DNA of 64,000 bases from an uncultured Alphaproteobacteria bacterium (GCA_944389595.1 CALXMY010000001.1:179-64178), one strand, 5' to 3'. Positions 3,406 to 49,933 are shown, numbered from the stretch's first letter. Notes: generated from the letters alone by a model not told the origin. Program-made: numbers and translations.

Positions 3406-3458
3406 ATGTATTATTTTATCATTTGTGTAACAATATTTACCCCAGGTAAGAAATCATA

Positions 3459-7360: not shown

Positions 7361-7363
7361 AAA

Positions 7364-7973: not shown

Positions 7974-8164
7974 TTGAAACGAATTATACAATAAAATTGC
8001 AAATAAAAAAATAATAAAAAATTCCGCATGTTAACATCCGGTTTTCTTATTTACAGACCGCACTAAAAATGTTATAATTAAAGAAAATAAGTGGGCATAT
8101 TGTACATTAATGCGCCATAAAATAACGGAATTTCCGGGCCTTTCCGGACTACAGGGGGAGTTTT

Positions 8165-18938: not shown

Positions 18939-20383
18939 TACTTTTTACCAACCGCATTTGATATGATACCGAATATTTGCTTTGGTGTGTTCCATATTTT
19001 TTTACCTAAATCTTTTGCCCATGTTCCAAAATCAAATTGTTCACCTTTACCGGCCTTGTCCAATCCGAATATGGCGGAAACTTTTGGTTTAATGGCCCAA
19101 AAATACAATGCGAATAATAATATCATCATCAACAGAAAATCCCATCCGTCGCGCATAAAATCAAATGCACCGGGATATTCGCGTTCAATTGTTGCGCGTT
19201 GCGCGGTAAAACAGTCACGGAATTTATCGGCATCCATTTCACCGTCAGCGGTTGCGACCTGTTCGCATGTGGAAAATACATTTATTATCGACATTGTTTG
19301 GGCATCAGGATTTTCAACAGTGCGCCCCATCATTGGCGGTAAAATCGCGCTGTATCCGTCCACAGGCCCCGGGAAATACGCATCAGCGGCATATGCAACG
19401 ATGGCATACGTTAATATAACTTTCAAAGTAATACTGATAATTTGAACAGCGGATTCCACCAATTTATTAATTGCATTTTTTACAACCCCACTGGCCAAAG
19501 ACCATGTTTGTTCAAATGCCGCCGCCCCCAATATCAGTGGCAAAAATATGATATAAAACACCAATTTAAATATTACTGATAAAACCTGGAATACTAAATC
19601 GAATCCGATTATCAAAAACATCAAAACCAATGTCAATCCGGCCAGCCATGTAAATACGCCACCGCCCAAATCCAACCATGCATAATTCATTAACGAAAAA
19701 CCGCCCGCCGCGCCGGCCAACATGACGCTGTTAATGTTTCCCATAACGCACATAAAAGGTTGTAATATTGGTGCCAATACATTATCAGATGCATTCGCGG
19801 CATCAATTGCACCACATTGCGCGGCATCCGATACCCCAGATGCCGCCATTGATAATTCGGCACCAACAAATAACACCGGTGTAATTGTAATGTTCGCAAC
19901 CGTGCGCAATGCCGCCGTGCCGCCCATCCCCAGTGCACCCATCAGTGCGCCAACAATTAATACGCGTGCACCCTGTCGCCATACTTTGTCAAACCAGCCG
20001 GCCAATTCCAGTTTTTTTTCTTTTTCATCCAGTTTTGCTGTTTCTTTGGCCGCATTAAAAATATATTGCCCCGTGTGCACGAATAAAAATAATCCGAATC
20101 CAATGGCCAATAAAATCCAAATGTTATCAACCATGGCGGTCCAAAACATTTCGGCCGCATTACCGATAACAACAAATAAATCCTCGATATATTTGCACAG
20201 AAAACATCCATTCGCAGATGCAATATCGCCGTCACCCGCACCAATTGCGTTTAAAAAGCCATCCATACTGGTATATGTTATTGCATCGCCACTGATTGCT
20301 GATGTCAAATACCATATACCAACGCCGATTGCTATCAGCGCCATGGCAATTTGTATGGCAATCATAATCAGTTTTGCTTTCAC
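18938..20383 (-). CDS. polytopic membrane protein, TrbL/VirB6-like, paralog 2
   Basis: 481 aa; GCFLCKYIEDLF CxxC motif, multiple TM helices, C-tail DLGKKIWNT..KK; GTG start at 20383 overlaps upstream stop (alt ATG 20365). Confidence 0.55.
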   Translation of the reverse strand: MKAKLIMIAIQIAMALIAIGVGIWYLTSAISGDAITYTSMDGFLNAIGAGDGDIASANGCFLCKYIEDLFVVIGNAAEMFWTAMVDNIWILLAIGFGLFLFVHTGQYIFNAAKETAKLDEKEKKLELAGWFDKVWRQGARVLIVGALMGALGMGGTAALRTVANITITPVLFVGAELSMAASGVSDAAQCGAIDAANASDNVLAPILQPFMCVMGNINSVMLAGAAGGFSLMNYAWLDLGGGVFTWLAGLTLVLMFLIIGFDLVFQVLSVIFKLVFYIIFLPLILGAAAFEQTWSLASGVVKNAINKLVESAVQIISITLKVILTYAIVAYAADAYFPGPVDGYSAILPPMMGRTVENPDAQTMSIINVFSTCEQVATADGEMDADKFRDCFTAQRATIEREYPGAFDFMRDGWDFLLMMILLFALYFWAIKPKVSAIFGLDKAGKGEQFDFGTWAKDLGKKIWNTPKQIFGIISNAVGKK

Positions 20384-21591
20384 TTCTTTTCTGCGCTTTG
20401 GTTTTTATTATCGTCTTTCTTTTCGCCGCCATTCAATATATTTTTACCGATATTTTTGGCGACATTTACAACATTTGTTGTCAATTTCATTGCGTCGTCA
20501 GCCAATTGTTCGCTTAATTTATTATCAGGCGACACGCCGAACGATTCCCATACCATTGATGTAACCTGGGGAATTTGTCCATATATAAAGTTTAACACAT
20601 ATATCAATATTATGCATCCACCAACAGTCATTGCGGCCAAATTATCATCTGATAAATCTTCTGCGAAAATATTGCCACTGGTAATTAAATCCATAACTTC
20701 GTTCACACTTTGCCCCGGTTCAGAAAAGAATTTTGCAATTATCACCATAATAATTGTATATGTCAGCACCGCAGATACCAATGCGATAATTGCATTTATC
20801 AGTTTTTTAAATTGATTGGTGCCAACCTCTTTGCCCAACCCAGACATCCATTTTGGGGCATCATCGCCCTTGAACGCGACCAATATTAATGACAATGGGA
20901 AAAAGAATGCGAAAAACGTCATTGCCACAATGATATCGGCAAAATAAAAGCAAAATCGTACAAATAATTTGAAAAATCCATAAAACAGATACAGCCCGAT
21001 AAAAAATAAAATAATATGTTTAATCAGTGAACCAATGCCAAACAATGCTTTTAATGAAAAAGCTTTGTCCATAACAGCAATACCCAATTTCATATATGAT
21101 TGAAATTGTGTAATTGTTGTTTTCATCAACATAATGATAGTATCGCGCAATTGTGGACGATAAAATCCATCATCGGACATTTGCATTGGTTGATATGTAA
21201 CTTTTTCATTAACGATGTCGTTATCAGTGTTTAACATGCTGTGCGTATAAATCAGTGCGATATTTGCCGCCGGTTCAAAAGTTATTGTCGTAATAAAGCG
21301 CGGCAGCATTACCCCCATGCTTAAAAATGTTAACGAAACCAATGAATTTATTAACAGTGGCTTTAAAGATTTCTGATACCATGGATCTGTTATTCCACCT
21401 TTGATATTTTTCCATACAGCGTTTATTACATAAAATGCAAACAATATGCAAAACAGAATGGCACAGAAAATTGCAAATTGGTTATATACTGATGCGGCCG
21501 CATCAGATACAATTTGAAACAAACGGTCAAATACCGGGCAACCCCAACATTGCACCGCAGAATCAACCAAAGAATTCATAAAATCGTTCAT
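20380..21591 (-). CDS. polytopic membrane protein, TrbL/VirB6-like, paralog 3
   Basis: 403 aa; QCWGCPVFDRLF CxxC motif; multiple TM; C-tail NIGKNILNGGEKK; ATGA overlap with paralog 4 stop. Confidence 0.55.
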   Translation of the reverse strand: MNDFMNSLVDSAVQCWGCPVFDRLFQIVSDAAASVYNQFAIFCAILFCILFAFYVINAVWKNIKGGITDPWYQKSLKPLLINSLVSLTFLSMGVMLPRFITTITFEPAANIALIYTHSMLNTDNDIVNEKVTYQPMQMSDDGFYRPQLRDTIIMLMKTTITQFQSYMKLGIAVMDKAFSLKALFGIGSLIKHIILFFIGLYLFYGFFKLFVRFCFYFADIIVAMTFFAFFFPLSLILVAFKGDDAPKWMSGLGKEVGTNQFKKLINAIIALVSAVLTYTIIMVIIAKFFSEPGQSVNEVMDLITSGNIFAEDLSDDNLAAMTVGGCIILIYVLNFIYGQIPQVTSMVWESFGVSPDNKLSEQLADDAMKLTTNVVNVAKNIGKNILNGGEKKDDNKNQSAEKK

Positions 21592-22883
21592 TTCTTTTTA
21601 ATCCATCCAAATGCGGTTCCCAGTGTTTTGCCCAAATTTTTAACGTTTTTCTGTAATACTTTTGTGTCGCCTTTGACCTGGTTGTATAAATTATCCATTC
21701 CCTTGCCCACGTATGAATCCAATTGTTCGCGTGTCAGATTAAATATACGAAACATTAAATAAAATGTTAATATCGCAGACAGCCATAATATTGAATGTTC
21801 ACCAAATCCCAATGCATTGGTCGCCACAGATGGTACATTTGATGTCGATGTTCCGCCGGCCGCAACAACAAATACAGATGAATTCCATCGGAATAACGAT
21901 TTTACGATCGCAATATTTACGCATAATATAAATGCGCATGCGATTGTTGTTATAACGATTTTTTGTAATGCCTTGGTTATGCCGCCGAATGCCGGCCATA
22001 TGTCCAGCCATTTTTCATTTGATTTTACCACATATGTTAAAACCTGAAACGGATACATTATTAATGCCATGCCAAAATTAAATATTGCCTGGATTATCAG
22101 CAATGCCATAAATAAATTACTGGCCACAAATGTGAATATTAAAATTATTCCTGTGACAATGTTTAAAAAGTCTTCGCCACCATGTGGAATCAGCGTTATC
22201 AGCCCGCGCAATCCGGATGTTACAAAATCAAATCCGCGTTTTATTATTTGATTGTTGGCATTTGATATATCGGATACCGGTTGGACCAGAAATTCGCAAC
22301 TTTCGCGTGTAATCCAGCCTTCTTGGATTATTGATTGCGGACATTCTATTTTTTTACCCGATACGCCGGCCTCGTTAATTGTATTGGTAATACTTTCGGT
22401 ATAATATGCGCCAAATTGCAGAAATGGGTTAATCAGCCATTCTGTCATATACACAGGTTTTAATTGCAATAAAATAGTTACCGCGATAATGGCGCGAATT
22501 GCCGGTTTTAACATATTTGTTGCAATTGTCATACCGCTGATACCATCGGCCATTTCGCCACCACCAGAAAATCCAAAAAAACCGACCCATGTTTTCGGAA
22601 AATATAATTTCAGCAAATACATTGCCATTGATACGATTAAAAATCCCCACACTAAAATATAAATAATACCGTCGCCATTGCCGACAAAAAATTCATATCC
22701 GCCGGTTGCGACCGCCATCAACGCATCCAATATTGTTGGAATTAATGGTGCCAAATTCAATGCATCAACAATTGCATATTGGGCGGCATTTGCATCAATC
22801 GGGGTACACAAAAACACGGCCAAAACCACCAATGGTATTGCGCGAATAAATATATTATAAACTATCGATTTTATAAAAAACAT
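21588..22883 (-). CDS. polytopic membrane protein, TrbL/VirB6-like, paralog 4
   Basis: approx 431 aa from ATG 22883 (track start 22910 is TTG); signal peptide MFFIKSIVYNIFIRAIPLVVLAVFLCTPIDANA; multiple TM; C-tail NLGKTLGTAFGWIKKK. Confidence 0.55.
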   Translation of the reverse strand: MFFIKSIVYNIFIRAIPLVVLAVFLCTPIDANAAQYAIVDALNLAPLIPTILDALMAVATGGYEFFVGNGDGIIYILVWGFLIVSMAMYLLKLYFPKTWVGFFGFSGGGEMADGISGMTIATNMLKPAIRAIIAVTILLQLKPVYMTEWLINPFLQFGAYYTESITNTINEAGVSGKKIECPQSIIQEGWITRESCEFLVQPVSDISNANNQIIKRGFDFVTSGLRGLITLIPHGGEDFLNIVTGIILIFTFVASNLFMALLIIQAIFNFGMALIMYPFQVLTYVVKSNEKWLDIWPAFGGITKALQKIVITTIACAFILCVNIAIVKSLFRWNSSVFVVAAGGTSTSNVPSVATNALGFGEHSILWLSAILTFYLMFRIFNLTREQLDSYVGKGMDNLYNQVKGDTKVLQKNVKNLGKTLGTAFGWIKKK

Positions 22884-22933
22884 TCTCTCGGTATTATTTT
22901 GTCTTTTCAATTATATCACATTTAGGGCAAAAT

Positions 22934-24241
22934 ATGATATACTTAAAAACAATGAGCAAGTTAAAAAAATTCTGGATTATTTTTTTATCGTTCCTGCCGT
23001 TTTCGGCGGGTGCCGCGGCACCGTTGGTTATTGGGGCAATTGCGGGATTGGGGGTTATTGCCGGATTTTCGATTTACAGAACGGCCGCCCCGGTAAATAT
23101 GGCAGATTCATTGAATTTTTTTTCCAGTTGCTGGTCGTGCCAGATGTTTTCGGACATAATTGCAATAATGTCCGGATTGGTTCCGCGGGTGTATGATGCG
23201 TTGGCTGGCGTTATTATACCGTTTGCGGCGGTATTAATGGCAATATGGTTTGCATGGAAATTGCTGTCTGGTTTTATAAATACAAAAATGGATGAAACAT
23301 GGTCGTTGGTTGGCGATTTTGGGACGAAATTTATAAAATTGGCTTTTGTTTCGGCATTGTTATTAATTCCATTACCACGGTTATTGACTGATATTGTAAT
23401 TGAACCGGTATTTAATGTCGGTTTGTCGTTAAACAGAATTGTTTCCGGAAACGACGAATTTGCAAAATGTGTTGTTGCGACTGCGGTGGCAGATCCGACC
23501 GCCGCCAGTGTGGATGCCGCATCATCGGGCGCGTTTTCGCCACAATTGCGCCATAATTTGACATGTGAAATTGCAAACATGCATCAAATGACCGGATTGG
23601 GAATGACGGTCGGGTGGACAATGCTGAACATGGCATTTAATGACGAATATATGCATCATATTTTATGGGTAATCCCAATATTTCCAAATGTGCCGATTTT
23701 CTTTGCCGGGTTATTAATATTGGTTGTATTCTTTTTCGCGTTATTACCAGTTCCCCTGTATTTTTTGGAGGTTTTTATAAAACTGGCCATGGATTTGGTA
23801 ATGTTGCCATTTATGCTGTTGTCATGGTTATTTGATGGATGGGCCATATTTCCAAAGGGCGGCCGTAATATAAAAAATATGATAAATGATGTGATAAAGG
23901 GCACCCTTGGCATCGCCATGGTCGGGGTTTTTGTTACGTTTTCGGTAATGTTTTTAAACGCCGTGTTTGGCCAGTGGCGCGGCGCGGACAGATTGGCCCT
24001 GGCATTGGCCGAAAACGATTCGACAATTTTGATGGATGGTTTGTTAATGCGAAATGACAGTATTATCACTATCTTATTAATGGGGCTGTTTTTTGCAATG
24101 TTTATGACAATGATACCTGCGCTGGTAAAATCTATATTTACCAATGTGGAAATTCCGAATACATTCTACGAATCGACCAAGAAAAATTTAAATATTGTGT
24201 GGGGAAACATGAAAAAATGGTACACATCACTAAAAAAATAA
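22934..24241 (+). CDS. polytopic membrane protein, TrbL/VirB6-like, paralog 5 (divergent)
   Basis: 435 aa (alt start 22952); signal peptide, SCWSCQMFSDII CxxC motif, multiple TM, C-tail KKNLNIVWGNMKKWYTSLKK. Confidence 0.55.
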   Translation: MIYLKTMSKLKKFWIIFLSFLPFSAGAAAPLVIGAIAGLGVIAGFSIYRTAAPVNMADSLNFFSSCWSCQMFSDIIAIMSGLVPRVYDALAGVIIPFAAVLMAIWFAWKLLSGFINTKMDETWSLVGDFGTKFIKLAFVSALLLIPLPRLLTDIVIEPVFNVGLSLNRIVSGNDEFAKCVVATAVADPTAASVDAASSGAFSPQLRHNLTCEIANMHQMTGLGMTVGWTMLNMAFNDEYMHHILWVIPIFPNVPIFFAGLLILVVFFFALLPVPLYFLEVFIKLAMDLVMLPFMLLSWLFDGWAIFPKGGRNIKNMINDVIKGTLGIAMVGVFVTFSVMFLNAVFGQWRGADRLALALAENDSTILMDGLLMRNDSIITILLMGLFFAMFMTMIPALVKSIFTNVEIPNTFYESTKKNLNIVWGNMKKWYTSLKK

Positions 24242-38696: not shown

Positions 38697-41441
38697 ATGT
38701 CAGACACAAATAATATCAATGAAATAAATGAAATCAAAATTCCACAGTCATCGTTGGAACATGAAATGCGCACCAGTTTTTTGGACTATGCCATGTCGGT
38801 TATTGTTGACCGTGCATTGCCCGATGTTCGCGACGGGTGTAAACCGGTGCATCGGCGTATTTTGTACGTTATGAACGATGTTGCGCCGGCAAACAAACCA
38901 ACGGTTAAATCTGCACGTATTGTTGGTGATGTTATGGGTAAATATCACCCGCATGGCGACAGTTCTATATACGAGGCCATGGTCCGCATGGGCCAGGATT
39001 TTTCCATGGGTGAAATGTTGGTCCAGGGCCAGGGTAACTTTGGTTCGCGCGACGGGGACAAGGCCGCAGCCATGCGTTATACCGAAGCGCGTCTGTCAAA
39101 ATTGGGTGCGTCCATGATGGACGATATGGACAAAGATACAGTTGATTGGCAACCGAATTTTGATGGTACATTACAGGAACCTGTTGTTTTGCCAACCAAG
39201 TTCCCAAACTTTTTGGTAAACGGTGGTTCGGGTATTGCGGTGGGTATGGCCACAAATGTGCCGACATATAATTTGGGTGAAATATGCAACGGGATTTTGG
39301 CGATTTTGAACAATCCGCAAATGTCCGATGACGAATTGTTTTCAATCATTCCGGGACCTGATTTCCCAACGGGTGCGATTATTATGGGGCGCGCCGGCGC
39401 GTACAAGGCGCATACCACAGGTCGCGGTTCGATAATTGTTCGTGCGAAAACGCATATGGAAACTTTTCATGATCACCCGGCAATTGTTGTTGATGAAATT
39501 CCGTACCAGGTAAATAAATCGCAATTGATTATGAAAATTGCCGAACTTAGCAAGGACAAACGTATCGAAGGTATCGCCGAAATTCGTGATGAATCATCCA
39601 AGGAAGGGTTGCGTATTGTTATTGAATTAAAGCGCGACGCAATCCCGGACGTTGTGTTAAATCATTTGTTCCAATATACGGAAATGCAAACGAATTTCCC
39701 GGTGAATATGATGGCATTAAACCGTGGACGGCCGATGCTGTTTAACGTTCGCGGTGTATTGGATGCGTTCATTGATTTTCGGTGCGAGGTTATTCGTCGT
39801 CGTACGATTTTTGATTTAAATCGTGCGCGCAATCGTGCGCATACGTTGTTGGGATTGTCGGTTGCGGTTGGCAATCTGGACGAAGTTATTGAATTAATTA
39901 AATCCAGTGCAAATCCGGATGCTGCACGCGAAGCGTTGGTTTCACGCGGGTGGCGTGCATCTGATATTGAAAACTATATTCAATTAATTGATGACCCAAA
40001 TACGGAATACAAAGATGGCATGTTTTATATGTCTGATGACCAGGCGCGCGCCATTTTGGAATTACAATTGCATCGTTTAACCGGATTGGAACGTGATAAA
40101 TTGCATGCGGATTTGGTTGATTTAGGTGCCCAGATAAAAGATTTACTGGACATTTTGGGCAGTCATGCGCGTATTATTCAAATTATTCGCGAAGAAACAA
40201 CAATGGTCCGCGATAATTGGGCCAGCCCGCGCCGCACGGAAATATCAGATGCCGAAATAGATATTGATATAGAGGATTTAATCGCGCGCGAGGATATGGT
40301 TATAACTGTTTCAAATACCGGGTATATTAAACGTGTGTCATTGGATACATACCGTGCACAAAAGCGCGGTGGCAAGGGTCGCAATGCCATGACCACCAAG
40401 GATGACGATTATGTAATTCAGGTGTTTGTTGCAAATACTCATACGCCGCTGTTATTCTTCAGTTCGCGCGGGTTATGCTATAAATTAAAAACATATAAAT
40501 TACCCGAAGCTGCCGCCGCGGCCAAGGGACGACCACTGGTAAATTTGTTGCCGTTACAAACCGGCGAAACAATTACCGCGATTTTACCAGTACCCGAAGA
40601 AGATGTTGCCGCCGCACGTGCATCGGGCAAAGAACATTTCTTGATGTTTGCAACTGCGTCTGGAACGGTGCGTCGTAATCGTATGTCCGATTTTGATTCG
40701 ATTCGTGCGAACGGTAAAATCGCAATGAAATTGGATGATGGCGACAGTTTGATTTCTGTGCTGCCGTGTACAGATGACCAGGATGTATTCCTGGCAACAT
40801 ATCGTGGGCGGTGTATACGTTTCCCTGTGTCGGAAATACGCGTCTTTGCGGGGCGTAATTCAACCGGCGTGCGCGGTATGACATTGGCCACAGACGATAA
40901 AATTATTGGTATGGCGATGTTAACGCATGGTGAATCTGATGCCGCTGTGCGTGCCGCATATGTAAAACAATCGCGTGCCGCACGTCGTGCCGCAACAGGC
41001 ATAGAAGAGGAATCAGACGACGAAGAAGACGTAACAAACGTAACATTAACCGATGAACAAATGGCAAAAATGGCCGCGGACGAGCAGTTTATATTAACTG
41101 TATCTGAAAACGGGTTTGGTAAACGTACATCGTCGTACGAATATCGCACAACACACCGTGGTGGTGGCGGTTTTGCGAATATTAAATTGGGCGGAAAAAA
41201 TACTGCTGTGGCGGGGTCTTTCCCGGTGGCCGATGATAACGATATTATCATGGTAACAGACGGCGGAAAAATTATACGTACGCCTGTGCGCGATGTGCGC
41301 ATTGCTGGGCGCAGCACCGCGGGCGTTACACTGTTCCGTACGGCCGAAAATGAAAAGGTTGTATCCGCAATATCAATCCTGAGTGACGAAGGCGAAGCGG
41401 CCGAGGTTGAACATGATGCCGCCGAATATGGGGCACAATAA
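38697..41441 (+). CDS. gyrA: DNA gyrase subunit A
   Basis: AGGGGA SD; MSDTNN...[34 protein letters not shown]; catalytic Tyr region [10 protein letters not shown]; C-terminal beta-pinwheel repeats. Confidence 0.9.
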
Positions 41442-41454
41442 AAACGGGGTCGGC

Positions 41455-41859
41455 ATGGATAATGAATATTTTGCATCAATAAACGAGGTATCAAAACGTT
41501 TGTCCGTGCCGGCATATACGTTGCGTTATTGGGAAAAGCAATTCCCCGTGGCAATTCGTCCAACAACGGGGGCCGGTGGGCGACGTTATTATCGGGCGGA
41601 AACGATTGACCGATTGGTTATAATTCGCGATTTGTTGTATAAACATGGTATGACCATAGCGGGGGTCAAAAAATTATTGCGCGACGGAAATTTCCCCGCA
41701 TCATCAGATGAATTTATATCCGCATCAAATGATGGTGGAACGCAATCTGTTATGCAGGCCCAGCCGGATGTTTCGCCAAAAACTAATACAAACGCCGCGC
41801 AAATTGATACGGCAATATCTATGCTGGAACAGGCATGCGATTTATTAAAAAATGTTTAA
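41455..41859 (+). CDS. MerR-family transcriptional regulator
   Basis: HTH INEVSKRLSVPAYTLRYWEKQF; start set to ATG after gyrA stop. Confidence 0.6.
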   Translation: MDNEYFASINEVSKRLSVPAYTLRYWEKQFPVAIRPTTGAGGRRYYRAETIDRLVIIRDLLYKHGMTIAGVKKLLRDGNFPASSDEFISASNDGGTQSVMQAQPDVSPKTNTNAAQIDTAISMLEQACDLLKNV

Positions 41860-41862
41860 TAA

Positions 41863-41890
41863 AAAATGCGCCAACGGCGCATTTTTTTAT
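41863..41890. terminator. bidirectional terminator hairpin
   Basis: AAAAAATGCGCCAACGGCGCATTTTTTTA. Confidence 0.7.
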
Positions 41891-42504
41891 TTTTGATTTT
41901 CCTGTTTGGATTTTAATGTTTTTAATCTTTTTTCATAAAATTTCATCAAAGTCGTGTTTACATCATTTTTGAATTTTTGTGTGTTGTTTTGTATACGTTT
42001 ATGCCATGTGGTCGTATCCAAATATTTTCTATACGCGGCACTGTCCGCAGCCAAATTATCAATTTCGGCGTTTACGTTTCGTAAATAATCCGTTGCGTGG
42101 CTTAATGGCCGGCTGTTGCGCAGTGCGGTGGTATATGTGGCATCCTTTATGGAATCGCGCGTTGCGTAAAATTTTTCTGCTGCTTCCTCTAGCGCAATTG
42201 TTTTATCAGATGATGCCATTGGTGTTGCGTTTATTTTTTTGCGCGCATCAGATAATTGCTGCATCGCATTTTTGTATTCCGTGGTATGCGGCAAAATGCT
42301 GTCCGCGTATCTCAGCGCGTTATTAAATGCTGTTTGATATTCCAATGTGGCATATGGCAAAACAGTATTACGCATATGGTCCAATTTACCCTGGTCAAAA
42401 CTTTTTGCGTCATATGATGCGATATATGCCGCAATGAACATGGCAATAATCGCAAAAATGCAACATGTTATTTCTAATTTTTCCATTGGTGTTTTTTTCG
42501 CCAT
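41887..42504 (-). CDS. hypothetical N-anchored helical protein
   Basis: 205 aa; single N-terminal TM then helical/coiled-coil domain. Confidence 0.45.
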   Translation of the reverse strand: MAKKTPMEKLEITCCIFAIIAMFIAAYIASYDAKSFDQGKLDHMRNTVLPYATLEYQTAFNNALRYADSILPHTTEYKNAMQQLSDARKKINATPMASSDKTIALEEAAEKFYATRDSIKDATYTTALRNSRPLSHATDYLRNVNAEIDNLAADSAAYRKYLDTTTWHKRIQNNTQKFKNDVNTTLMKFYEKRLKTLKSKQENQK

Positions 42505-42519
42505 GTTAAGTCCTTTTTT

Positions 42520-43092
42520 TTATCTGTCTTTTTCGTTTATTTTTTGTTGCACAATGGCAGCACGCTTGTCAAAATATTTGGACAAATTCAGGTTTGCGTT
42601 TAACCGTGCCTCGCGCCAACGTTGACCTAATGTGACAGAATCATTATATTTTAAGTATTGTTCAATTTGTTTTACCCTGTTTCTTGATGCATCTAATCGC
42701 AGTTTTGCTTTTTGCAAATCACGATTATTATGAATGTATTGATTCTGCAATTCGCTGTTTAATGAATCAATTTTGCGTTCCAGAGAATCGCTTTTATTAA
42801 TGTTGCCACGTTTAATTTCGTCATAAAATTGATTTAATAATCTCATGTATGTCGTATCTTGTTTTAATGTGTCATAGCTACGATTAATAACCGTATCATA
42901 CACCAGTTGATAATTCTCTTCCGAATGATACAGATTTTCGCGCGCTAAATCCAGGTCGTGTTGATTCGCTGGCATATCAGTTGCGTACGCGAATATTGCA
43001 ATCGCACCTATCACGGTTGTGCCGGCAAACATTGCCGCCCCTGCAACGTGTTTCCCGAACTTTTTAATATTTAATTTTTTTTGTTCAGACAT
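42520..43092 (-). CDS. hypothetical N-anchored helical protein (same architecture as neighbour)
   Basis: approx 190 aa from ATG 43092; single TM then coiled-coil domain. Confidence 0.45.
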   Translation of the reverse strand: MSEQKKLNIKKFGKHVAGAAMFAGTTVIGAIAIFAYATDMPANQHDLDLARENLYHSEENYQLVYDTVINRSYDTLKQDTTYMRLLNQFYDEIKRGNINKSDSLERKIDSLNSELQNQYIHNNRDLQKAKLRLDASRNRVKQIEQYLKYNDSVTLGQRWREARLNANLNLSKYFDKRAAIVQQKINEKDR

Positions 43093-43196
43093 AATAATTC
43101 CTTTTGCTTTTTCCCATAACAATATAGTACAAAATATAATATTGTCAATATATAAAATGAAAAAAATATTTTTCTCGTGTTATGGGAAAAATATTT

Positions 43197-43271
43197 TGGC
43201 AGTCCCAACGGGAATCGAACCCGTGTTACCGGAATGAGAATCCGATGTCCTAACCGCTAGACGATGGGACC
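43197..43271 (-). tRNA. tRNA-Glu (anticodon CTC as read)
   Basis: own fold: acceptor GGTCCCA/TGGGACT, D-arm TCGTCTAGCGGTTAGGACA, anticodon stem TCGGA/TCCGG with loop TTCTCAT, T-arm GGGTTCGATTCCC, discriminator G, CCA encoded. Confidence 0.75.
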
Positions 43272-43617
43272 AACGCCGTATATATTACAAATTATTTCCC
43301 ATTTTGCAAATGGTAAATGTATTGGGGCTGTGTGTGGGGCGATAATTTCGCGTATCAACATATTTAATGAAAAATATTGGGGTGGAAATTCTGGTGGCGG
43401 AATATTTGATAATAAGGGTGATATAATGGGAATTCATGTATGGGGCAAGCCTATAATTGGTGGTGAAAATCACGCAGGCAGCGCGGGTGGAATAAATCTG
43501 CAGATATCTGCATGGGATGGAATGAAAAGAAATGTAAAAGGTAATCTGCAAAATATAGTTGATGCTATAAAAGTTAATGATATAACAGTTAACGGTAAAG
43601 AAGTTGAAAGTATGTAA
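43264..43617 (+). pseudogene. C-terminal remnant of trypsin-like (S1) serine peptidase
   Basis: GNSGGGIFDNKGDIMGIHVWG matches the catalytic-Ser segment (GDSGGP-like) of the S1 fold; no room for His/Asp-bearing N-terminal half because ORF begins inside tRNA-Glu. Confidence 0.4.
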
Positions 43618-43656
43618 AAAGTGTTTTTTTATTTTTTTACCAAGGGGGGTTAAATT

Positions 43657-44028
43657 ATGAAAAAAGAAACAAAGGTCACGAAGTTAAAAATTGCTGGTAT
43701 AACTGCTTTGGTTGCGGGTGTGCTGGCGGCCGGTGGAATCGCATACAATAATTTTGCAAATTCCGAGAAAGATTCCGATAAAAAATTGGAAATCAACACG
43801 TCTAAATTAACTGTAAAGCAAATGCAGGATTTTATCCATGAATCAGATATTGCACTGGCACGTTTGCAAGGCGTTATTGATTCTGATACCGCCAATCCCG
43901 AAGAAAAATTCGAAGCACGTCGTGCATATAACAATATAAGTGTTGAGCGTGATAAAATGCGGAACGAATTACAAAAACGCCAACAAAAAACAATTGATTT
44001 TGATACAGTTCGTACGAACCATAGGTAA
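43657..44028 (+). CDS. hypothetical membrane-anchored protein
   Basis: 123 aa, N-terminal TM, GGGG SD. Confidence 0.4.
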   Translation: MKKETKVTKLKIAGITALVAGVLAAGGIAYNNFANSEKDSDKKLEINTSKLTVKQMQDFIHESDIALARLQGVIDSDTANPEEKFEARRAYNNISVERDKMRNELQKRQQKTIDFDTVRTNHR

Positions 44029-44134
44029 TGGTTGCGTTATCATAGTGCTAAATAGGCATCCCGCGGGTGTTGCGGGGCAAAAAAATCGCCCCATGTGGGC
44101 GATTTATAAACATTGCATTTATGTTAAGCGTATA

Positions 44135-44899
44135 TCAGCGTTTAATATTCTTTTCTTCTAATAAACGTAACATTTGTTTTACGGTCTCTTTGACATAAAA
44201 CGGTTCTATGATATTTGCCTCTATGCCATAATAATCTGGTTTGAATGTCAAACCGGCGGCGGCGACAAATTTTTCCAATGCCTTTGGATCCAATGCCAAT
44301 GTTATGCCCTCTTTGCGGTCATAGATAGTGTATATCATATCACGCATATTTTTTTGCAGACTGTTTAATTTTTTTGCAATAACGCTTTCGTCTTCTTGGA
44401 TATATTTTTGTAAAGCGTTCGGGGTCAGCCCACTATGTTTTGTCAGGGGGCCCCCAATATTATCTTTTAGATTCAAATTGGAATTCCCAAGCAACCAATC
44501 GATAGAATCCGCAAAAACATAATATGATGGCGACCGAAATGTAATGGCTTTTTTTGCCCCCGGTAAACGGCTTTTGTACAGTTTTGCCAATGTATAGGCG
44601 ATGTATTCGGGGGTACTGTTTATATAGTATTTTGCCAGTACATTAACATCAAATATATAGCGTTCAGGATTCAACGGTTTTTCGTGTTTTCGTAATTTTG
44701 CTATTTTACAAAATTCATCCAGAAAACTTTTATGTAAACACAAATGTAATTCGCCGTCAACAAGCCATGTGCGAATAACGTTGGGCATATATGTTTGATA
44801 ACGTTTCAGCAAATCATCGAAACTTTGCTTTGTATAAACAATATACAATCCTAACTCGTCAGGTGACAGCCAATTTTCTGGTTTGCGTTTTATATACAT
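44135..44899 (-). CDS. hypothetical protein
   Basis: approx 254 aa from ATG 44899 (track ORF extends to 45067); no family recognised. Confidence 0.45.
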   Translation of the reverse strand: MYIKRKPENWLSPDELGLYIVYTKQSFDDLLKRYQTYMPNVIRTWLVDGELHLCLHKSFLDEFCKIAKLRKHEKPLNPERYIFDVNVLAKYYINSTPEYIAYTLAKLYKSRLPGAKKAITFRSPSYYVFADSIDWLLGNSNLNLKDNIGGPLTKHSGLTPNALQKYIQEDESVIAKKLNSLQKNMRDMIYTIYDRKEGITLALDPKALEKFVAAAGLTFKPDYYGIEANIIEPFYVKETVKQMLRLLEEKNIKR

Positions 44900-45184
44900 A
44901 ACAAATCCTTTTTTATTATATTTTGGGGCCATAATATCACAAAAACAAGATTTGTCAATATGTTTTTTGGGATGTTTACAAATCTTTAACAAATATTTCC
45001 CATTTTGTAAATGGTAGAGTGTTTTATTGCGCGTTCCGGTCAATACCAGGAAACATGCAAACAACATAATATAAAATTTATTGATACATCAGATGGTATT
45101 CTGACCGCTTTGGGTGATTATATGAATATAACATCGTGCATTTTTTTGTATGAATCTTTCAGAAAAGTTGGTATAATAAACCAC

Positions 45185-46927
45185 ATGAATTTCCCAACCA
45201 GCCTGAACGGTTTTTTTAAGTTAATTTTCAAGACTTTCCCCGTTTGGTTAATTTCTTTATTTGTTATTTCGATATTATATCGTTCGGCAACGAATATATC
45301 TTGGCCTTTTGTTAACAAGTGGATTGTAGAGATGTTTGAATCTGCGACCACTGGTGTTTTTTCCTGGGTGTTTTGGGCAATTGTGGGGATGTTTGCTGCA
45401 ACGCTTATATTTGGGATATTGGAAAAACTTTTAACAGGATGGTTTTTGCCGTATTTGTCGAAATATATAAACCAAACGTTATACGAGTATATTTATCAAA
45501 ACGACACAGATTTTTTTATTAACCAACCCGCAGGTCAAACGTCCAGTTACGTTGCAAAAATATGCGGTAATTTTATATCATTGACCATCAGTACCGCCAT
45601 TCAGATAACTGGCTTTGTTTTATCGTTGGTGTTTGTTTTGGGTACGATTTTAACGATGGATGTGTATCTGGCGTTAATAATATTTGTCATTGTTGCCGTT
45701 CGCGGTGCATGGCAATTATGGATGCAACGCAAAATAAACAAACAGAAAAAAATCCAGGTGGAAAAGCAGTCCCGGGTTTCTGGTTACAGAATAGACAGTC
45801 TTACCAATGCATTGAATATAAAAATGTTCGGCAATACAGCGGATGAAAATAAATTTATTTGGAAAAAACAAATGGATTTATTAAAAACAGACCGACATAT
45901 TTTTAAGTTGGATTTATTGCGTTCTATACCATCTAATATTATCTGGTTGGTGATGCAGATATTTATAATATTATTTGCTGTATTTATGATTTTTGATGGA
46001 CAAATTACAATTTCTGATGGCGTATTTGTCGTTACGGGGGCGCGATCTTTTGGGTCGCAATTGTCAAGTGTTTTTCTGTTAATACAATCGTATTCAGAAA
46101 CCAAGACCGAGGCCACCAAGGCATATAACAGCGTTATCGTTCCACAAACAATTGCTGATAAACCAAATGCGAAACGTTTGGTAAAACAAAAATCTGAAAT
46201 AGTTTTTGATAATGTATCATTTACATACAAAAATGGTAAAAAGGTTTTGAAAAATTTTAATTTAACTGTCGCGCCAAATGAAAAATTGGGAATAGTTGGA
46301 TTATCGGGTTCGGGTAAAACAACGCTGATAAATTTGTTATTACGGATGTATGATGTTGATACCGGTGCAATAAAAATAAATGGCAGGGATATTCGGGATT
46401 TGATTCAAAATTCACTGCATAAAAATATCAGCATTGTTCCCCAAGATGTGACATTGTTCAATCGAACGATATTGGAAAATATACGCTATGGCGCGCCAAA
46501 TGCGTCCAAGTCCGATGTGATTCGGGCCGCTAAACACGCATATATTCATGATTTTATTATGGGGCTGCCAAATGGTTATGATACATTGGTTGGGAATCGT
46601 GGTGTAAAATTATCTGGTGGCCAGCGTCAAAGGGTCGCGATTGCGCGTGCAATATTAAAAGATGCGCCAATCTTGGTGTTTGACGAGGCCACATCTGCAT
46701 TGGATTCAGAAAGTGAAAAATATATTCAAAACGCATTAAATCGTATTATGCACGGCAAAACCGCCATAGTTATCGCACATAGGTTGTCGACATTGCGTAA
46801 TATGACCAGGATTGTTGTAATTCAGAACGGAAAAATTGTCGAGACCGGAACCCACAAACAATTATTGCGTGCAAATGGTGCATACAGAAAATTGTGGAAT
46901 ATGCAAACAGATGGATTCGTGGGATAA
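45185..46927 (+). CDS. ABC exporter, fused permease/ATPase (MsbA-like)
   Basis: 6-TM N-terminal domain; Walker A GLSGSGKTT, signature LSGGQRQR, Walker B ILVFDEATSALD, H-loop; start chosen downstream of overlapping minus-strand gene. Confidence 0.8.
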   Translation: MNFPTSLNGFFKLIFKTFPVWLISLFVISILYRSATNISWPFVNKWIVEMFESATTGVFSWVFWAIVGMFAATLIFGILEKLLTGWFLPYLSKYINQTLYEYIYQNDTDFFINQPAGQTSSYVAKICGNFISLTISTAIQITGFVLSLVFVLGTILTMDVYLALIIFVIVAVRGAWQLWMQRKINKQKKIQVEKQSRVSGYRIDSLTNALNIKMFGNTADENKFIWKKQMDLLKTDRHIFKLDLLRSIPSNIIWLVMQIFIILFAVFMIFDGQITISDGVFVVTGARSFGSQLSSVFLLIQSYSETKTEATKAYNSVIVPQTIADKPNAKRLVKQKSEIVFDNVSFTYKNGKKVLKNFNLTVAPNEKLGIVGLSGSGKTTLINLLLRMYDVDTGAIKINGRDIRDLIQNSLHKNISIVPQDVTLFNRTILENIRYGAPNASKSDVIRAAKHAYIHDFIMGLPNGYDTLVGNRGVKLSGGQRQRVAIARAILKDAPILVFDEATSALDSESEKYIQNALNRIMHGKTAIVIAHRLSTLRNMTRIVVIQNGKIVETGTHKQLLRANGAYRKLWNMQTDGFVG

Positions 46928-47018
46928 TATAATGATTTCAAATCAGGTCTTAATGCGAACAGACACCACGCATCACCAGATTTAATGAAAAATATTGGTG
47001 TGGAAATTCAGGGGTGAC

Positions 47019-47639
47019 TTAATCATTTTGTTTATTGAATGATCGTTGTAATATATTCCTTGATGGCTGTTGTTTTATTAAATCTGCAATATCAACACGA
47101 TGGTATTTTCCATCTGATATCGCTTGCCGCATTTCTGACTGTAAATTATCGTTTGTGGATGTGCCGGGTTTGTTTTTCAACGGTTCGTTTAACTCATATA
47201 TTTTATACCCCATTTTTCTTAATTCCGCGAATGTATTATATGTTTCGCGCCCGGATATTTTAATGGGCTTGGTTGAATAATATTCTGTGCCCCGGTCATG
47301 AATAAATGGCGCGTTTGTTGGTTCATACACAGTATAAAGATAAAATTCTGGTTTGATATTTTTTGCCAGACGCTCGAAAAATATTTTTCTGTCCCCCGTT
47401 TTTTGTGTATAATCGTACTTCACTTGGCCCCGGCCGGATAAACATTTTACCAACGCAAAAAATTTGGCATATTCCGCATGATCTGTAACAAATGCGCCAG
47501 TTACACGTTTGTTTTGTACGCTGTTAAATTGTTCCCTTGGTTGCAAAAAATCACCATGAATTTGCGTGGCGGAACCGTGATAATATTTGCGCTTTGTGGT
47601 TAATTTTTTTATCCCACTCGAAAAAACGTTTTTGTTCAT
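47019..47639 (-). CDS. hypothetical protein, possible PARP-like (H-Y-E class) ADP-ribosyltransferase fold
   Basis: 206 aa; YYHGS ... VTGAFVTDHAEYAKFFA ... EFYLYTVYE resemble the HGS / aromatic / Y-x-V-Y-acid segments of the PARP-type ADP-ribosyltransferase core (weak, by eye). Confidence 0.35.
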   Translation of the reverse strand: MNKNVFSSGIKKLTTKRKYYHGSATQIHGDFLQPREQFNSVQNKRVTGAFVTDHAEYAKFFALVKCLSGRGQVKYDYTQKTGDRKIFFERLAKNIKPEFYLYTVYEPTNAPFIHDRGTEYYSTKPIKISGRETYNTFAELRKMGYKIYELNEPLKNKPGTSTNDNLQSEMRQAISDGKYHRVDIADLIKQQPSRNILQRSFNKQND

Positions 47640-47742
47640 AAAAATACTCCGGCATTTATGCTTAAATTATACAATAAAAATCGCAAAAATACACCAAAAT
47701 AGAAAATTTTCATAAAACCGGCTTTTGAATATACGATGCCAG

Positions 47743-47757
47743 GGGCGCACGGATTCC
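47743..47757. repeat. 15-bp direct repeat of tRNA-Gln 3' end
   Basis: GGGGCGCACGGATTC identical to 47920-47934 inside tRNA-Gln, 177 bp away, same orientation. Confidence 0.7.
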
Positions 47758-47889
47758 CTCGCACGGCGCGGGGCGACCGCGGGGAAACCGTAACGATTTG
47801 ACTGCGCGTGTGCTTGTCAAATCTACTTGTTTTCGAACCGGCAACCGTCGGTTGCGGGCCACGAACCGTGGCCACGAACCAAAAATAAA

Positions 47890-47915
47890 AACGCCACAGG
47901 GGCGTTTTAATTTTT
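47890..47915 (-). terminator. terminator hairpin after tRNA-Gln (AAAACGCCCC-tgtg-GCGTTTTT on minus strand)
   Basis: same AACGCCCC/GGGGCGTT stem family as ppdK, rplU and rpmA terminators. Confidence 0.6.
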
Positions 47916-47988
47916 GGTTGGGGCGCACGGATTCGAACCATGATAAAGAGAACCAAAATCTCTTGTCCTACCATTAGACGACACCCCA
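47915..47988 (-). tRNA. tRNA-Gln (anticodon TTG)
   Basis: own fold: TGGGGTGTCGTCTAATGGTAGGACAAGAGATTTTGGTTCTCTTTATCATGGTTCGAATCCGTGCGCCCCAACCA; acceptor TGGGGTG/CGCCCCA, anticodon loop TTTTGGT, CCA encoded. Confidence 0.8.
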
Positions 47989-48156
47989 AAAGCAAGTTGC
48001 ATTATATATGTATTTGATAATTTTGCAATAATATTTTTTATCAAATGTTGTTCAGGTAAAAATTTTTTTAAAATTTATTATTTTTCCACTTGCAATTTAT
48101 TTATTAAAACATATAATTATTCACGTTTTTAATAATTAACAGCCCGGGGGAATAAA

Positions 48157-48606
48157 ATGGCTCGTAAAGAATTTGTTAAATTATTTGAACAAAACGTCTT
48201 ATTATTCGACAGATTGTCTGATAAATTAAAGCGCGCGCCCGCGTTTTTGGCCGGTTTTCCGCGCCAGCAATTAAGTGTTTTGGTGCGTTTGCATTTGGGT
48301 GGGCCCGATTTGTTAAAGGAAATTGCGCGGCGCGAAATGTTGACTGCACCAAACCTGTGTGCGGTGTTTCGCAAATTGGAACGTGACGGTTTGGTTTTGC
48401 GTAAAATTGATGAAAAAGATCGTCGTAACACCTGGTATTCTGTGACCGAGGCCGGCGAAAAAGTTGCGACCCAGGCGATGGACGTAATGCGTAACGCAAT
48501 TGAAGATTTATTTGCGGGTATTTCACGCGAAGATGAAATGGCGTTAACGGGTGCAATGAAGACGATTAACAGTATCTTAACCAAAATGGAGTTAACAAAT
48601 GCATAA
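48157..48606 (+). CDS. MarR-family transcriptional regulator
   Basis: 149 aa winged-helix; precedes efflux operon; stop overlaps next gene. Confidence 0.7.
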   Translation: MARKEFVKLFEQNVLLFDRLSDKLKRAPAFLAGFPRQQLSVLVRLHLGGPDLLKEIARREMLTAPNLCAVFRKLERDGLVLRKIDEKDRRNTWYSVTEAGEKVATQAMDVMRNAIEDLFAGISREDEMALTGAMKTINSILTKMELTNA

Positions 48607-49933
48607 ATTCAAATTGGCCGCGGTTGTATTGTGCGCGGTTGGCGCAATGGGTAATGCGTATGGAATGGATTTGTCGCTGGATACGGCGGTTGACATGATT
48701 TTGGCCGAATCCCAGGATTTAAAAAAGGCCGCCGCAAATGTTGAAAAGGCCGAAGCGTCACTGGATGTGGCGAATGCAAATCGCTGGTTTAAAATTGACG
48801 GAACGGCAACATATATGAATTTGGTAAATGTGAAAAATCCGACAAAATCGTATACTGTTGATTTGCCGCCGGAATTGGGTGGATTATTGTCGCAATATTT
48901 GGAAAAAAACATCCAATTGCCGGAACAAATTGATATTTATGACAATATGTTTATGGCGGGGGTCACGGTTACCCAACCGATTTATACATTTGGTAAAATC
49001 GGCAATGCGGTAAAGTCGGTCAAGGCCGCAATAAAAATGGCCGAATCCAGCCAGGAAATGACGCGCCGCGAAGTAAAATACAGCGCGGTTGATATGTATT
49101 GGACCGCAAAAATGACGGACGAAATTGTTAAAATATCGCGCGCTGATTTACAGGCGGCACGTGACGCACGGCGCAGTTTAACATCCGCCGGTCGTGCCAA
49201 TCGCAGCAATTTGGTTAAAATTGAATCTGATATCGCGACCAAGGAAATAAACCTGTCGAATGCGGAATTTAATCGTGACACTGCGCACAGAATGTTAAAA
49301 ATTCTGGCGGGCATAGATGTTAACGAGGAATTAAATCTGACGGATGAATTTCCTGATACGTTTCCTGAATTAGAAGTTGGCGAATTAAAATCTACGCCGC
49401 AATGGGATATATTGAACCAACAGATTCAAATGTATGAACGTAATGCTAAATCAAAACGTGCGGGAATGTTGCCAACATTGGCGGCGACGGCATCATATAA
49501 CTATATTGCAATGGGGCCAAATATGGGAAACATGTTTGACGGTATTGATACACAATCTGCGTATTGGGGTTTGGCGTTACAGGTGCCGATATTCAGCGGT
49601 GGTGCAAATATGGCAAATGCCACAATCGAGGCCATGAATGCCGAAGCGGCACGTCAAGATTTAGACAAGGCAACCAAATTAGTAACCGAAGAATACACAC
49701 GCGCCATTGATCAATATAATCATTTGCGCGGGAATTTAAAAACATTGGAAAATGCGCGTGATTTGGCGGCCAAGGCATATGATTTTTCCAGTGGGCGTTT
49801 TGCATCCGGGCAAACATCGGCCGTTGAATTGGCCGAGGTTTCAGCCGGTCTGTATCAATTGGATATGGCACTGTTGAATGCGAAATATAATATTTTAATG
49901 TCTGCGGAATCTGTGAAAAAATTGGGTGAATAA
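48599..49933 (+). CDS. TolC-family outer-membrane efflux protein
   Basis: 444 aa; signal peptide; two-repeat helical/beta architecture typical of OEP family. Confidence 0.65.
   Translation: MHKFKLAAVVLCAVGAMGNAYGMDLSLDTAVDMILAESQDLKKAAANVEKAEASLDVANANRWFKIDGTATYMNLVNVKNPTKSYTVDLPPELGGLLSQYLEKNIQLPEQIDIYDNMFMAGVTVTQPIYTFGKIGNAVKSVKAAIKMAESSQEMTRREVKYSAVDMYWTAKMTDEIVKISRADLQAARDARRSLTSAGRANRSNLVKIESDIATKEINLSNAEFNRDTAHRMLKILAGIDVNEELNLTDEFPDTFPELEVGELKSTPQWDILNQQIQMYERNAKSKRAGMLPTLAATASYNYIAMGPNMGNMFDGIDTQSAYWGLALQVPIFSGGANMANATIEAMNAEAARQDLDKATKLVTEEYTRAIDQYNHLRGNLKTLENARDLAAKAYDFSSGRFASGQTSAVELAEVSAGLYQLDMALLNAKYNILMSAESVKKLGE

Follow-up and report, generated by a model that had tools for sequence, protein, structure and literature searches.

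This analysis concerns the segment between two transfer RNA (tRNA) genes, tRNA-Glu(CUC) and tRNA-Gln(UUG), in a 64,000-nucleotide (nt) stretch of DNA (hereafter the window) from an uncultured Alphaproteobacteria bacterium (GCA_944389595.1 CALXMY010000001.1:179-64178), and in particular a gene-free unit, here called the A element, that lies against the 3′ end of tRNA-Gln. Both tRNA genes had been called in a first-pass annotation of this DNA and both were found again by ARAGORN and by Rfam; for tRNA-Gln there is also a promoter-like TTGCAA-16-TATAAT on the minus strand at 48028-48001. Proceeding from tRNA-Glu, the interval holds the remnant of a trypsin-like peptidase gene, several orphan genes, an MsbA-like ABC exporter and the A element, the latter bounded on its far side by a partial copy of the tRNA-Gln gene (Table 1). 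Patterns at this and related loci are consistent with repeated insertion at the tRNA-Gln 3′ end, with a folded and conserved core in the A element, and with later reshuffling of the interval by homologous recombination.

Related loci were collected through the adjacent MarR gene, for which an exact-protein look-up gave ten metagenome loci and orthologues at 91, 82, 79, 71 and 66% identity gave loci of five sister species. One locus, L003, was 100% identical to the window across 41000-48700. All comparison sequences are metagenome assemblies, in which repeat-driven collapse, chimera or misassembly is possible at single loci; L008 carries an N gap, and L002 has a tRNA-Gln with an internal deletion (L002:9806-9830, with GGATTCGAA joined directly to GACACCCC) that received no ARAGORN call and is either a true loss or an artefact of assembly. 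When species-representative genomes were scanned for the motif as a pattern, it was located in two metagenome-assembled genomes of uncultured gut Alphaproteobacteria and in Candidatus Enterousia excrementavium; the taxonomic placement is based on these three named records. Enterousia belongs to the order Rs-D84, members of which have been described as reduced in genome size, to about 1 Mb or less (PMC12306168).

The 15-mer GGGGCGCACGGATTC occurs exactly at 47742-47756 and at 47920-47934, a spacing of 178 nt. These were the only two window matches even when 2 mismatches were allowed, against 0.13 expected, and two matches were reached in 1 of 100 shuffles. The first-pass annotation had noticed this direct repeat, which is exact and real, although it placed the first copy one position too far along (47743-47757) and described the second as the last 15 nt of tRNA-Gln plus its flank. 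Rather, the second copy lies entirely inside the tRNA gene, from G57 of the T-loop to nt 71 of the acceptor, and the terminal AACCA and the flank are not repeated. A chance origin of the repeat was rejected on these match statistics together with the comparison of cognate and non-cognate tRNAs described below.

Between the two copies lies most of the A element, which is present once in the window as 173 nt (47742-47914) without an open reading frame (ORF) and thus without a site-specific recombinase gene of its own. It includes a 139-nt GC-rich stretch with a GC content of 0.64, in a window of 42% GC, and the internal repeat GGCCACGAACC that had been noted within the GC-rich interval was indeed found twice, at 47857-47867 and 47870-47880, one copy being part of a hairpin. 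The two blocks GGGGAAACCGTAACG and CTACTTGTTTTCGAACC were invariant across species even where MarR identity was 66%, and the hairpins between the invariant blocks changed in sequence with pairing kept. For the hairpin H2 with its adjacent pairs, 98.4% of alignment cells were paired and 7 pairs were doubly changed, amounting to 55 such cells in 34 distinct copies; the observed score was reached in none of 500 shuffles, and slid controls were at most 52% paired. The hairpin H1 was present as a hairpin in every copy with unrelated sequences and lengths. Covariation of this kind is unexpected for the protein-binding arms of double-stranded DNA or for neutral debris, so that, judging from the alignments, the A element must act as a folded single strand, whether RNA or DNA. 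It is under purifying selection. The intrinsic terminator that closes the element was at a conserved position in all A copies and was supplied by the A element each time; no genes lay between core and terminator in any copy. The interpretation of the GC-rich 160 bp as a decayed remnant was accordingly given up in favor of a conserved, covariation-supported, gene-free module of about 180 nt that stands behind 12 tRNA species.

There was no match of the A element to a described RNA family. Searches of the window, the element and the related arrays against Rfam 15 returned tRNAs only, whether the gathering or a permissive threshold was used, and the best scores for 47742-47880 were 8.8-14.7 bits (E 1-7.8) against gathering thresholds of 47-80, with HEARO/omega-type, transfer-messenger RNA (tmRNA) and tRNA-like models included. 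A pseudo-tRNA or tmRNA reading was rejected, there being no ARAGORN or Rfam call and no visible acceptor or T-arm partner strand. A miniature inverted-repeat transposable element, or another element derived from an insertion sequence, was rejected as well: no inverted repeat joins the ends of 47742-47914, where only internal hairpins and the terminator were seen, and the flanking repeat is 12-20 nt with proximal and distal copies that are not alike at the CCA end. An integron was the third rejected candidate, since no recombinase was found among the 20 window ORFs scanned and the repeat between cassettes is a tRNA 3′ end. A 119-amino-acid (aa) ORF covering the A element and tRNA-Gln (47636-47995, minus strand) is a stop-free frame in GC-rich non-coding DNA and not a gene, and spurious stop-free frames likewise span A at other loci.

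The window element proved to be one member of a family. A metagenome scan with both invariant blocks returned 39 loci and 12 tRNA species, namely Gln-UUG, Gln-CUG, Ser-GGA, Ser-CGA, Gly-CCC, Pro-GGG, Pro-CGG, Pro-UGG, Arg-UCU, Arg-CCU, Lys-CUU and Tyr-GUA. A was convergent to the tRNA gene, with its terminator abutting the CCA end, in all loci with enough sequence left, and in nearly all 39 the convergent tRNA was within about 70-100 nt of A; in L068, 845 nt separate the A element from tRNA-Tyr. The far end of A was a direct copy of the 3′ part of the cognate tRNA, a rule that held in 35 A-tRNA pairs. The exact match between the far A end and the cognate tRNA 3′ end had a median of 15 nt and a maximum of 20 nt (nt 57-76, CCA included), compared with a median of 6, a 95th percentile of 8 and a maximum of 11 nt for non-cognate tRNAs. 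The partial copy ended at one site, where ...GGATTC is followed by CCTCG in the element and by GAACC in the tRNA gene (C56/G57 in tRNA sense). The 15-mer repeat of the window is one instance of this general rule.

Two further properties of the partial copies bear on how they arose. In loci whose left flank is host DNA, the distal copy was without CCA and had another discriminator base, while the tRNA-proximal copy carried CCA, and the proximal copy is thus element-borne and not the product of a simple target duplication. Within the window species the partial copy varied, with one G fewer in L001/L010 and two substitutions in L005; it read GCGC-C in the P0008 species and was trimmed to 12 nt elsewhere, whereas the core blocks never varied, which argues against the copy being a strictly required guide. 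A copies clustered mostly by tRNA type. There were also close cores at different tRNAs, with 88% identity between L088 (Gln-CUG) and L064 (Gln-UUG) and 79% between Arg-UCU and Pro-UGG, and these point to inter-locus movement or gene conversion.

Downstream of tRNA-Gln, the related loci contained small modules in differing combinations: A, the window's GC-rich element with its terminator; B, of about 190 nt with four hairpins and a bidirectional terminator; U, of about 105 nt and always directly adjoining a ...CCAACCA end; and G, an 81-aa GIY-YIG gene. Between the modules stood copies of TGGTTGGGGCGCAC, which is the final 14 nt of tRNA-Gln, and the junction always fell after CAC, including that of the unrelated cassette types A, B and G at tRNA-Gln. 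In the sister species with a 433-bp interval (L022-L029), a copy of TTTGGTTGGGGC was found 55 nt from tRNA-Glu. Homology with this species suggests that tRNA-Gln and tRNA-Glu were formerly neighbors, because a putative relic of the oldest tRNA-Gln end lies about 50 nt from tRNA-Glu in the window; everything between them would then be insertions at the 3′ end of tRNA-Gln, of which the newer ones lie closest to the tRNA. The 4.4-kb gene block is not bounded by the 15-mer pair and lies outside it, between the 15-mer and the older relic beside tRNA-Glu. Of the proposal of an insertion at tRNA-Gln, what stood was the 15-mer as a displaced partial tRNA 3′ end of the insertion type, and what fell was the decay of the 160-bp interval.

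Several observations were made on these modules outside the window. Module U (L008:9565-9758; L004:554-833; L014:2370-2515; L069 left of A) has a conserved 10-bp hairpin (CCACACTTCG...CGAAGTGTGG) and starts right after the ...CCA tRNA end on the tRNA-sense strand, with a terminator after it, and therefore would be co-transcribed with the tRNA. It forms tandem 147-nt units in L004/L008, and a U-like copy adjoins the tRNA-Gly(CCC) end copy in L069; it is not in the window and had no Rfam match. Module B (L013 reverse complement ~1367-1560; L022:2535-2735), likewise not in the window, follows GGGGCGCAC of tRNA-Gln as an insertion, differs between species by compensatory changes (GTGCAAAT/ATTTGCAC vs GCACAAATA/TATTTGTGC) and holds an inverted partial copy of the tRNA T-stem and acceptor, AATCCGTGCG. 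The 81-aa GIY-YIG (YhbQ-like) cassette was located at L004:~270-515 (minus), L024:2147-2392 and L012:~4810-5055; it starts with the left module of the A element, consisting of the partial tRNA copy, ATTCCCTCG and a GC hairpin, and the U module follows. Contigs of the P0008 sister species (L045, L046, L049 (position 1), L047, L048, L051) begin or end exactly at GGCGCACGGATTCGAACC or just beside tRNA-Gln, as would be expected if the assembly graph branches at the repeat in a population that is heterogeneous there. More unrelated insertions at A-bearing tRNAs were seen at L055:~1375, L074:~470, L068 and L066:~870, positioned CCA-proximally, directly after TGGTTG or TGGTGGGAG, or at the T-loop position of other tRNAs, so that tRNA-Gln is not the only tRNA with stacking.

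A larger island was present in L004, where 8.9 kb (843-9758) are inserted at the CCA-proximal TGGTTGG of tRNA-Gln. Its genes encode a rolling-circle-type Rep (Rep_ORF2/G2P-like), an NgoFVII-type restriction enzyme with a C5 methylase, an AAA_15/PD-T4-4-like ATPase with a 177-aa partner, and a 517-aa large serine recombinase. The reading frame of the recombinase ends inside the tRNA gene, and attP would therefore lie within the 3′ end of the recombinase gene. The island junctions are at TGGTTGG (836-842 and 9759-9765), and the inverted repeat ATTGTTCA/TGAACAAT that flanks this core has the appearance of the attP arms of the island. The L004 recombinase is evidence that the tRNA-Gln end is used by integrating elements, but the window repeat is not its product.

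The frame of tRNA-Glu on one side and tRNA-Gln, MarR and an efflux operon on the other was constant in about 50 related metagenome loci, with content between the tRNAs varying by strain and species. Strains with identical MarR differed in gene content. In the window species, some strains had an intact operon of 330- and 335-aa genes, some were missing the 117- and 123-aa genes, some had a 257-aa orphan in place of the 206-aa gene, an added GNAT acetyltransferase, or both genes, and some had a wholly different gene set. In one sister species the entire interval was 433 bp with non-coding cassettes only, and other sister species had unrelated orphan genes between the tRNAs. Breakpoints coincided with repeated modules, namely the 30-nt protease fragment (43362-43391 and 46980-47009), the 47640-47741 module and the 23-nt near-palindrome; in L009 the AT-rich module at 47640-47741 is duplicated jointly with the left part of the GC-rich element. 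The breakpoints show that, after insertion, strains diverged through homologous recombination between repeated modules, by which cassettes and genes were deleted, duplicated and swapped. The segment 43272-47741 also had the lowest GC content among all 4.47-kb stretches of the window (0.361, median 0.419). The segment is thus accessory, as the first-pass annotation proposed, given its differing content among identical-MarR strains and sister species, its low GC, the protease remnant and the repeats at breakpoints; neither one gene content shared by all relatives in the absence of a repeat, nor a 15-mer common throughout the genome, was found.

Some of the individual genes could be traced further. 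The ORF at 43264-43617 shares 8 nt with tRNA-Glu, as had been reported, and encodes 117 aa. Its last 79 aa are identical (79/79, BLASTP) to aa 257-335 of an intact 335-aa protein in strains L002/L006, and its first 38 aa are read from unrelated filler, so that the proposed protease remnant is a true one. The intact protein matches Pfam Trypsin (8.8e-9) and Trypsin_2; in L002 (L002:4495-5502) it also resembles, weakly, the PADLOC models for LmuA (4.5e-10) and RT-protease class XI, and may constitute a defence-type module together with the 330-aa gene upstream of it. The call of an MsbA-like ABC exporter was upheld, with a score of 361 bits that is under the 602-bit equivalog cut-off of NCBIfam TIGR02203 (MsbA). 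The 123-, 254- and 206-aa products, noted earlier as orphans, had no match in Pfam, NCBIfam, PADLOC or the Protein Data Bank. Pfam was run on 20 of the window's 58 ORFs, among them all of those between the tRNAs, and no recombinase was found, which is consistent with the earlier remark that the window has no integrase. The second copy of the 23-nt near-palindrome sits between the divergent 254-aa gene and the ABC exporter, and in L002 the motif lies upstream of the intact 330/335-aa operon; it is probably a shared operator, and its sharing suggests that the protease operon and the exporter are under common regulation. The AT-rich module 47640-47741 was, in L005, L007 and L009, reused before other genes or duplicated along with the left part of the A element. 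Elsewhere in the window, ORFs without a family were found at 17640-22910 (minus), 22934-24241 and 489-2908. There was a run of four large genes (432, 481, 403 and 440 aa) with no Pfam match, a GC content of 0.36-0.38 and reversed GC skew. Several further window ORFs were without a family, and some window orphans had 35-50% identical homologues on other A-bearing contigs.

Table 1. Features of the interval between tRNA-Glu and tRNA-Gln, in window coordinates.
Feature	Position	Strand	Evidence or remark
tRNA-Glu(CUC), left anchor of the variable region	43197..43271	-	ARAGORN; Rfam tRNA 61.7 bits; kept in every related locus
23-nt near-palindromic motif tatttcccattttgcaaatggta	43293..43315	.	Second copy at 44994-45016, upstream of ABC exporter; blastn-short
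Putative relic TTGGGGC of oldest displaced tRNA-Gln 3′ end	43322..43328	+	Inferred by positional homology with TTTGGTTGGGGC of sister species; weak alone in the window
C-terminal 79-aa remnant of 335-aa trypsin-like peptidase gene	43378..43617	+	BLASTP; Pfam on full protein; blastn breakpoints
123-aa orphan gene	43657..44028	+	Missing from strains L001/L005/L009/L010
254-aa orphan gene	44135..44899	-	Listed ORF reaches 45067 via alternative start
MsbA-like ABC exporter, fused membrane domain and ATPase, 638 aa	45011..46927	+	Pfam ABC_membrane and ABC_tran
Second copy (30 nt, 97%) of protease-gene fragment 43362-43391	46980..47009	+	blastn-short; coincides with strain-specific deletion/replacement breakpoints
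206-aa orphan gene	47019..47639	-	In other strains swapped for, or joined by, 257-aa orphan and GNAT acetyltransferase
AT-rich 5′ region of 206-aa gene	47640..47741	.	blastn; L009 sequence
Partial copy of tRNA-Gln 3′ part, distal A-element boundary	47742..47756	+	Antisense text GGGGCGCACGGATTC, tRNA nt 57-71
A-element core, about 125 nt	47756..47880	.	Alignments; covariation count; fold z-scores -4.0 and -2.7
Core: CCCTCG	47756-47761		
Core: hairpin H1	After CCCTCG, before 47781-47795		
Core: invariant block GGGGAAACCGTAACG	47781-47795		15 nt
Core: hairpin H2	47796-47822		
Core: invariant block CTACTTGTTTTCGAACC	47823-47839		17 nt
Core: two hairpins	47840-47855 and 47857-47873		
Bidirectional intrinsic terminator (stem 47888-47908 and T-run)	47888..47914	.	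Terminator scan, both strands; abuts tRNA-Gln CCA end
tRNA-Gln(UUG), encoded CCA, insertion target	47915..47988	-	ARAGORN; Rfam

Taken as a whole, the explanation we favor, at a probability of roughly 0.55, is that the tRNA-Gln 3′ end is a recombination hot spot which received repeated insertions and that A is a miniature unit handled in trans. We have high confidence in two parts of this, the hot spot itself and the 15-mer as a displaced partial tRNA copy. The hot spot is indicated by the differences among identical-MarR strains, the cassettes separated by TGGTTGGGGCGCAC, the TTTGGTTGGGGC copy of L022-L029, the L004 island and the contig breaks at the core. Our confidence is moderate that the unit bounded by the 15-mer is a non-autonomous miniature integrative element, with a recombinase encoded elsewhere, that was later reshuffled by homologous recombination. 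The sequences show that each unit brings its own tRNA 3′-end copy, and in A and B units a terminator too, leaving the tRNA intact, and that at each insertion the earlier 3′ end is pushed outward and left as a partial direct repeat. Read outward from the tRNA, the stack consists of the A element at 47742-47914, an older low-GC cargo block at 43.3-47.7 kb and, judging from sister species, the putative oldest relic about 50 nt from tRNA-Glu. The enzyme that moves or maintains A would most likely be a recombinase whose gene lies elsewhere, crossing over in the T-loop/T-stem region, with the folded core possibly acting as single-stranded DNA or RNA. Excision of A would be predicted to give the circle junction TTTTTGGTTGGGGCGCACGGATTCCCTCGCAC and the empty site ATGCCAGGGGCGCACGGATTCGAACCATG.

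Several points weigh against this explanation. There was no recombinase in or beside any A copy (Pfam, 10 island-side ORFs of other A loci), and all-against-all BLASTP of flanking ORFs revealed no protein family common to A contexts, the clusters being just stop-free frames over A itself or locus-specific neighbors. Searches of IMG/VR viral contigs gave 0 matches for the tRNA 3′-end core and 0 for the A core. Neither an excised circle nor an attP junction was recovered, the circle junction itself not having been searched for. A classical attP is specific to a single tRNA, so that one core at 12 tRNA species with cognate copies on both sides is awkward, as are the 88% identical cores of L088/L064 that each have their own matching tRNA ends. 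Clustering by tRNA type fits long vertical residence better than frequent movement. The metagenomic origin of all assemblies, with repeat-induced misassembly possible at individual loci, must be considered here as well. A wider proposal is tentative, although it may be considered: A could represent a class, not described before, of miniature, gene-free, tRNA-linked mobile elements with an active folded core, whose antisense end (the last 15-20 nt of the tRNA) either specifies the target or results from T-loop targeting, which spread by an RNA- or structure-directed process without a recombinase of their own, and to which U and B would be sister cassettes.

The main rival explanation is that A does not move and is a resident non-coding RNA gene of tRNA biology, read from the plus strand as a 5′ stretch antisense to the final ~15-20 nt of the adjacent tRNA, followed by a conserved scaffold and an intrinsic terminator. 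Such an RNA would pair with the tRNA, with the tRNA precursor or with the tRNA gene, and what looks like a direct repeat would serve as a guide or antisense segment and not be an integration scar. This could account for the recurrence of a variable cognate 5′ segment with an invariant scaffold and terminator at 12 tRNA species, for the strong helix covariation, and for the retention of A in lineages reported to have reduced genomes (PMC12306168), and there is complementarity between the conserved UUCGAACC and the universal T-arm GGUUCGAA as well. Folding evidence on the active strand appears to be conflicting. An invariant G-U pair and an A/G-U pair, A-C mismatches on the opposite strand, are signs of the plus strand, as is the better folding of H1 on that strand in 38 of 42 copies, but whole-core folding energy favored the minus strand in 27 copies and the plus strand in 14, and RNAalifold energies were alike on both strands (-34.4 vs -36.1 kcal/mol). 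No sigma-70-like promoter was found upstream of A on the plus strand, left flanks are unrelated between loci, and there is neither a linked partner protein gene nor an Rfam family. Together with the variation of the partial copy (L001/L010, L005, the GCGC-C of P0008 and the 12-nt trims) beside constant core blocks, this makes a resident RNA gene seem doubtful to us.

A second rival explanation dispenses with site-specific insertion: the tRNA 3′ end and the region downstream of it would have been duplicated locally in tandem, and the arrays and strain differences would then have come from unequal crossing-over and from homologous recombination, anchored in the conserved tRNAs, with DNA of relatives. 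Unequal homologous recombination alone could indeed explain copy-number differences, a further point against the favored explanation: in L042-L044 the A unit is duplicated in tandem along with about 20 nt of its left flank, giving two copies; L039 is without a full A unit that is present in L036/38/40, and L036 and L039 differ by the unit between 77-nt repeats that permit plain homologous deletion; L009 doubles the promoter module and the left part of A; and breakpoints of gene blocks lie in repeated segments. However, local duplication would not account for one core behind 12 tRNA species with cognate copies that end at the same T-loop position, nor for the CAC junction common to the unrelated A, B and G cassettes, nor for left copies without CCA next to tRNA-proximal copies with it. 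It therefore explains local changes in copy number and not the spread to 12 tRNA species, and as a full account we consider it unlikely. Least probable by far is that the 15-mer pair represents attL and attR of an island of the L004 type, of which the window would be a deletion derivative. L004 does have the 15-mer at 222-236 and 9764-9778, and its serine recombinase adjoins the tRNA, but the real junctions of the island are at TGGTTGG flanked by ATTGTTCA/TGAACAAT, the distal 15-mer belongs to an older GIY-YIG/U cassette that is present in L008 without the island, and the window A element has only its first ~30 nt in common with that cassette. The L004 serine recombinase as maker of the 15-mer repeat was rejected on the TGGTTGG junctions.

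Islands stacked at tRNA genes are well known, and their repeating units are gene-carrying elements with recombinases or the decaying remains of such elements. The stack proposed here between the two tRNAs matches descriptions of two such systems. In Dehalococcoides, tandem islands at ssrA are bounded by ssrA 3′-end repeats with an insertion point midway along the T-loop, and some are without integration modules: 16 islands have a DsiB serine recombinase module, and 15 units without an integration module were proposed to be cis-mobilizable (PMC3146451). The tandem units downstream, the 3′-end direct repeats and the strong variability among strains are shared with our loci. Those islands, however, are kilobases long, carry genes and use one target gene, as opposed to a gene-free unit of ~180 nt with a covarying folded core at 12 tRNA species. 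In the tycheposon islands of Prochlorococcus, successive integrations at one tRNA push older elements outward and partial tRNAs mark the stacking (10.1101/2020.12.28.424599). Outward stacking and scattered partial tRNAs are found here too, and the Prochlorococcus host genome is likewise streamlined; unlike our units, tycheposons are equipped with tyrosine recombinases, genes for replication and cargo, and their description includes no conserved non-coding core as a repeating unit.

In part, A fits a cis-mobilizable element (CIME), being flanked by att-type repeats and free of recombination and transfer genes, as are the CIMEs at streptococcal sites of integrative conjugative and integrative mobilizable elements (PMC3146451). 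CIMEs, as far as that source treats them, are decayed relatives of integrative conjugative elements with common att sites, whereas for A no parent with an A core or with the CAC or T-loop junction was found: no element with an A core plus genes was among the 39 matches, and the only recombinase-bearing element seen at this tRNA, that of L004, crosses over elsewhere, at TGGTTGG. Integron cassette arrays are similar in having ordered short cassettes beside a fixed site and differences in order among strains, and their folded-strand sites are a possible parallel; here there is no IntI gene, attI or attC, and a tRNA 3′ end serves as the repeat between cassettes, most of which are non-coding. In mycobacteriophage Ms6, editing the attP core retargets a T-loop integrase to the T-loops of other tRNAs (PMC1762012), and there is hence a possible route for one family to occur at several tRNAs. 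The block of identity from T-loop to tRNA 3′ end is like that of the Ms6 attP. Ms6 is a phage with its own integrase, and the A unit as a whole does not exceed an attP site in size and stands by itself, for which no described precedent was found in the literature. Thus A is a gene-free module of about 180 nt with invariant blocks and compensated helices that occurs at >=12 tRNA species, at least, in a gut and rumen clade with a cognate copy at one T-loop position, a combination not explained by a classical attP of single specificity. It points to a trans-mobilised miniature integrative unit, a tRNA-directed RNA or a folded-strand recombination site, any of which, if true, would be a new player in tRNA-gene-linked genome plasticity and a defined, testable sequence family. 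In practical terms, a 15-nt tRNA repeat without a nearby integrase should not be dismissed as a dead scar.

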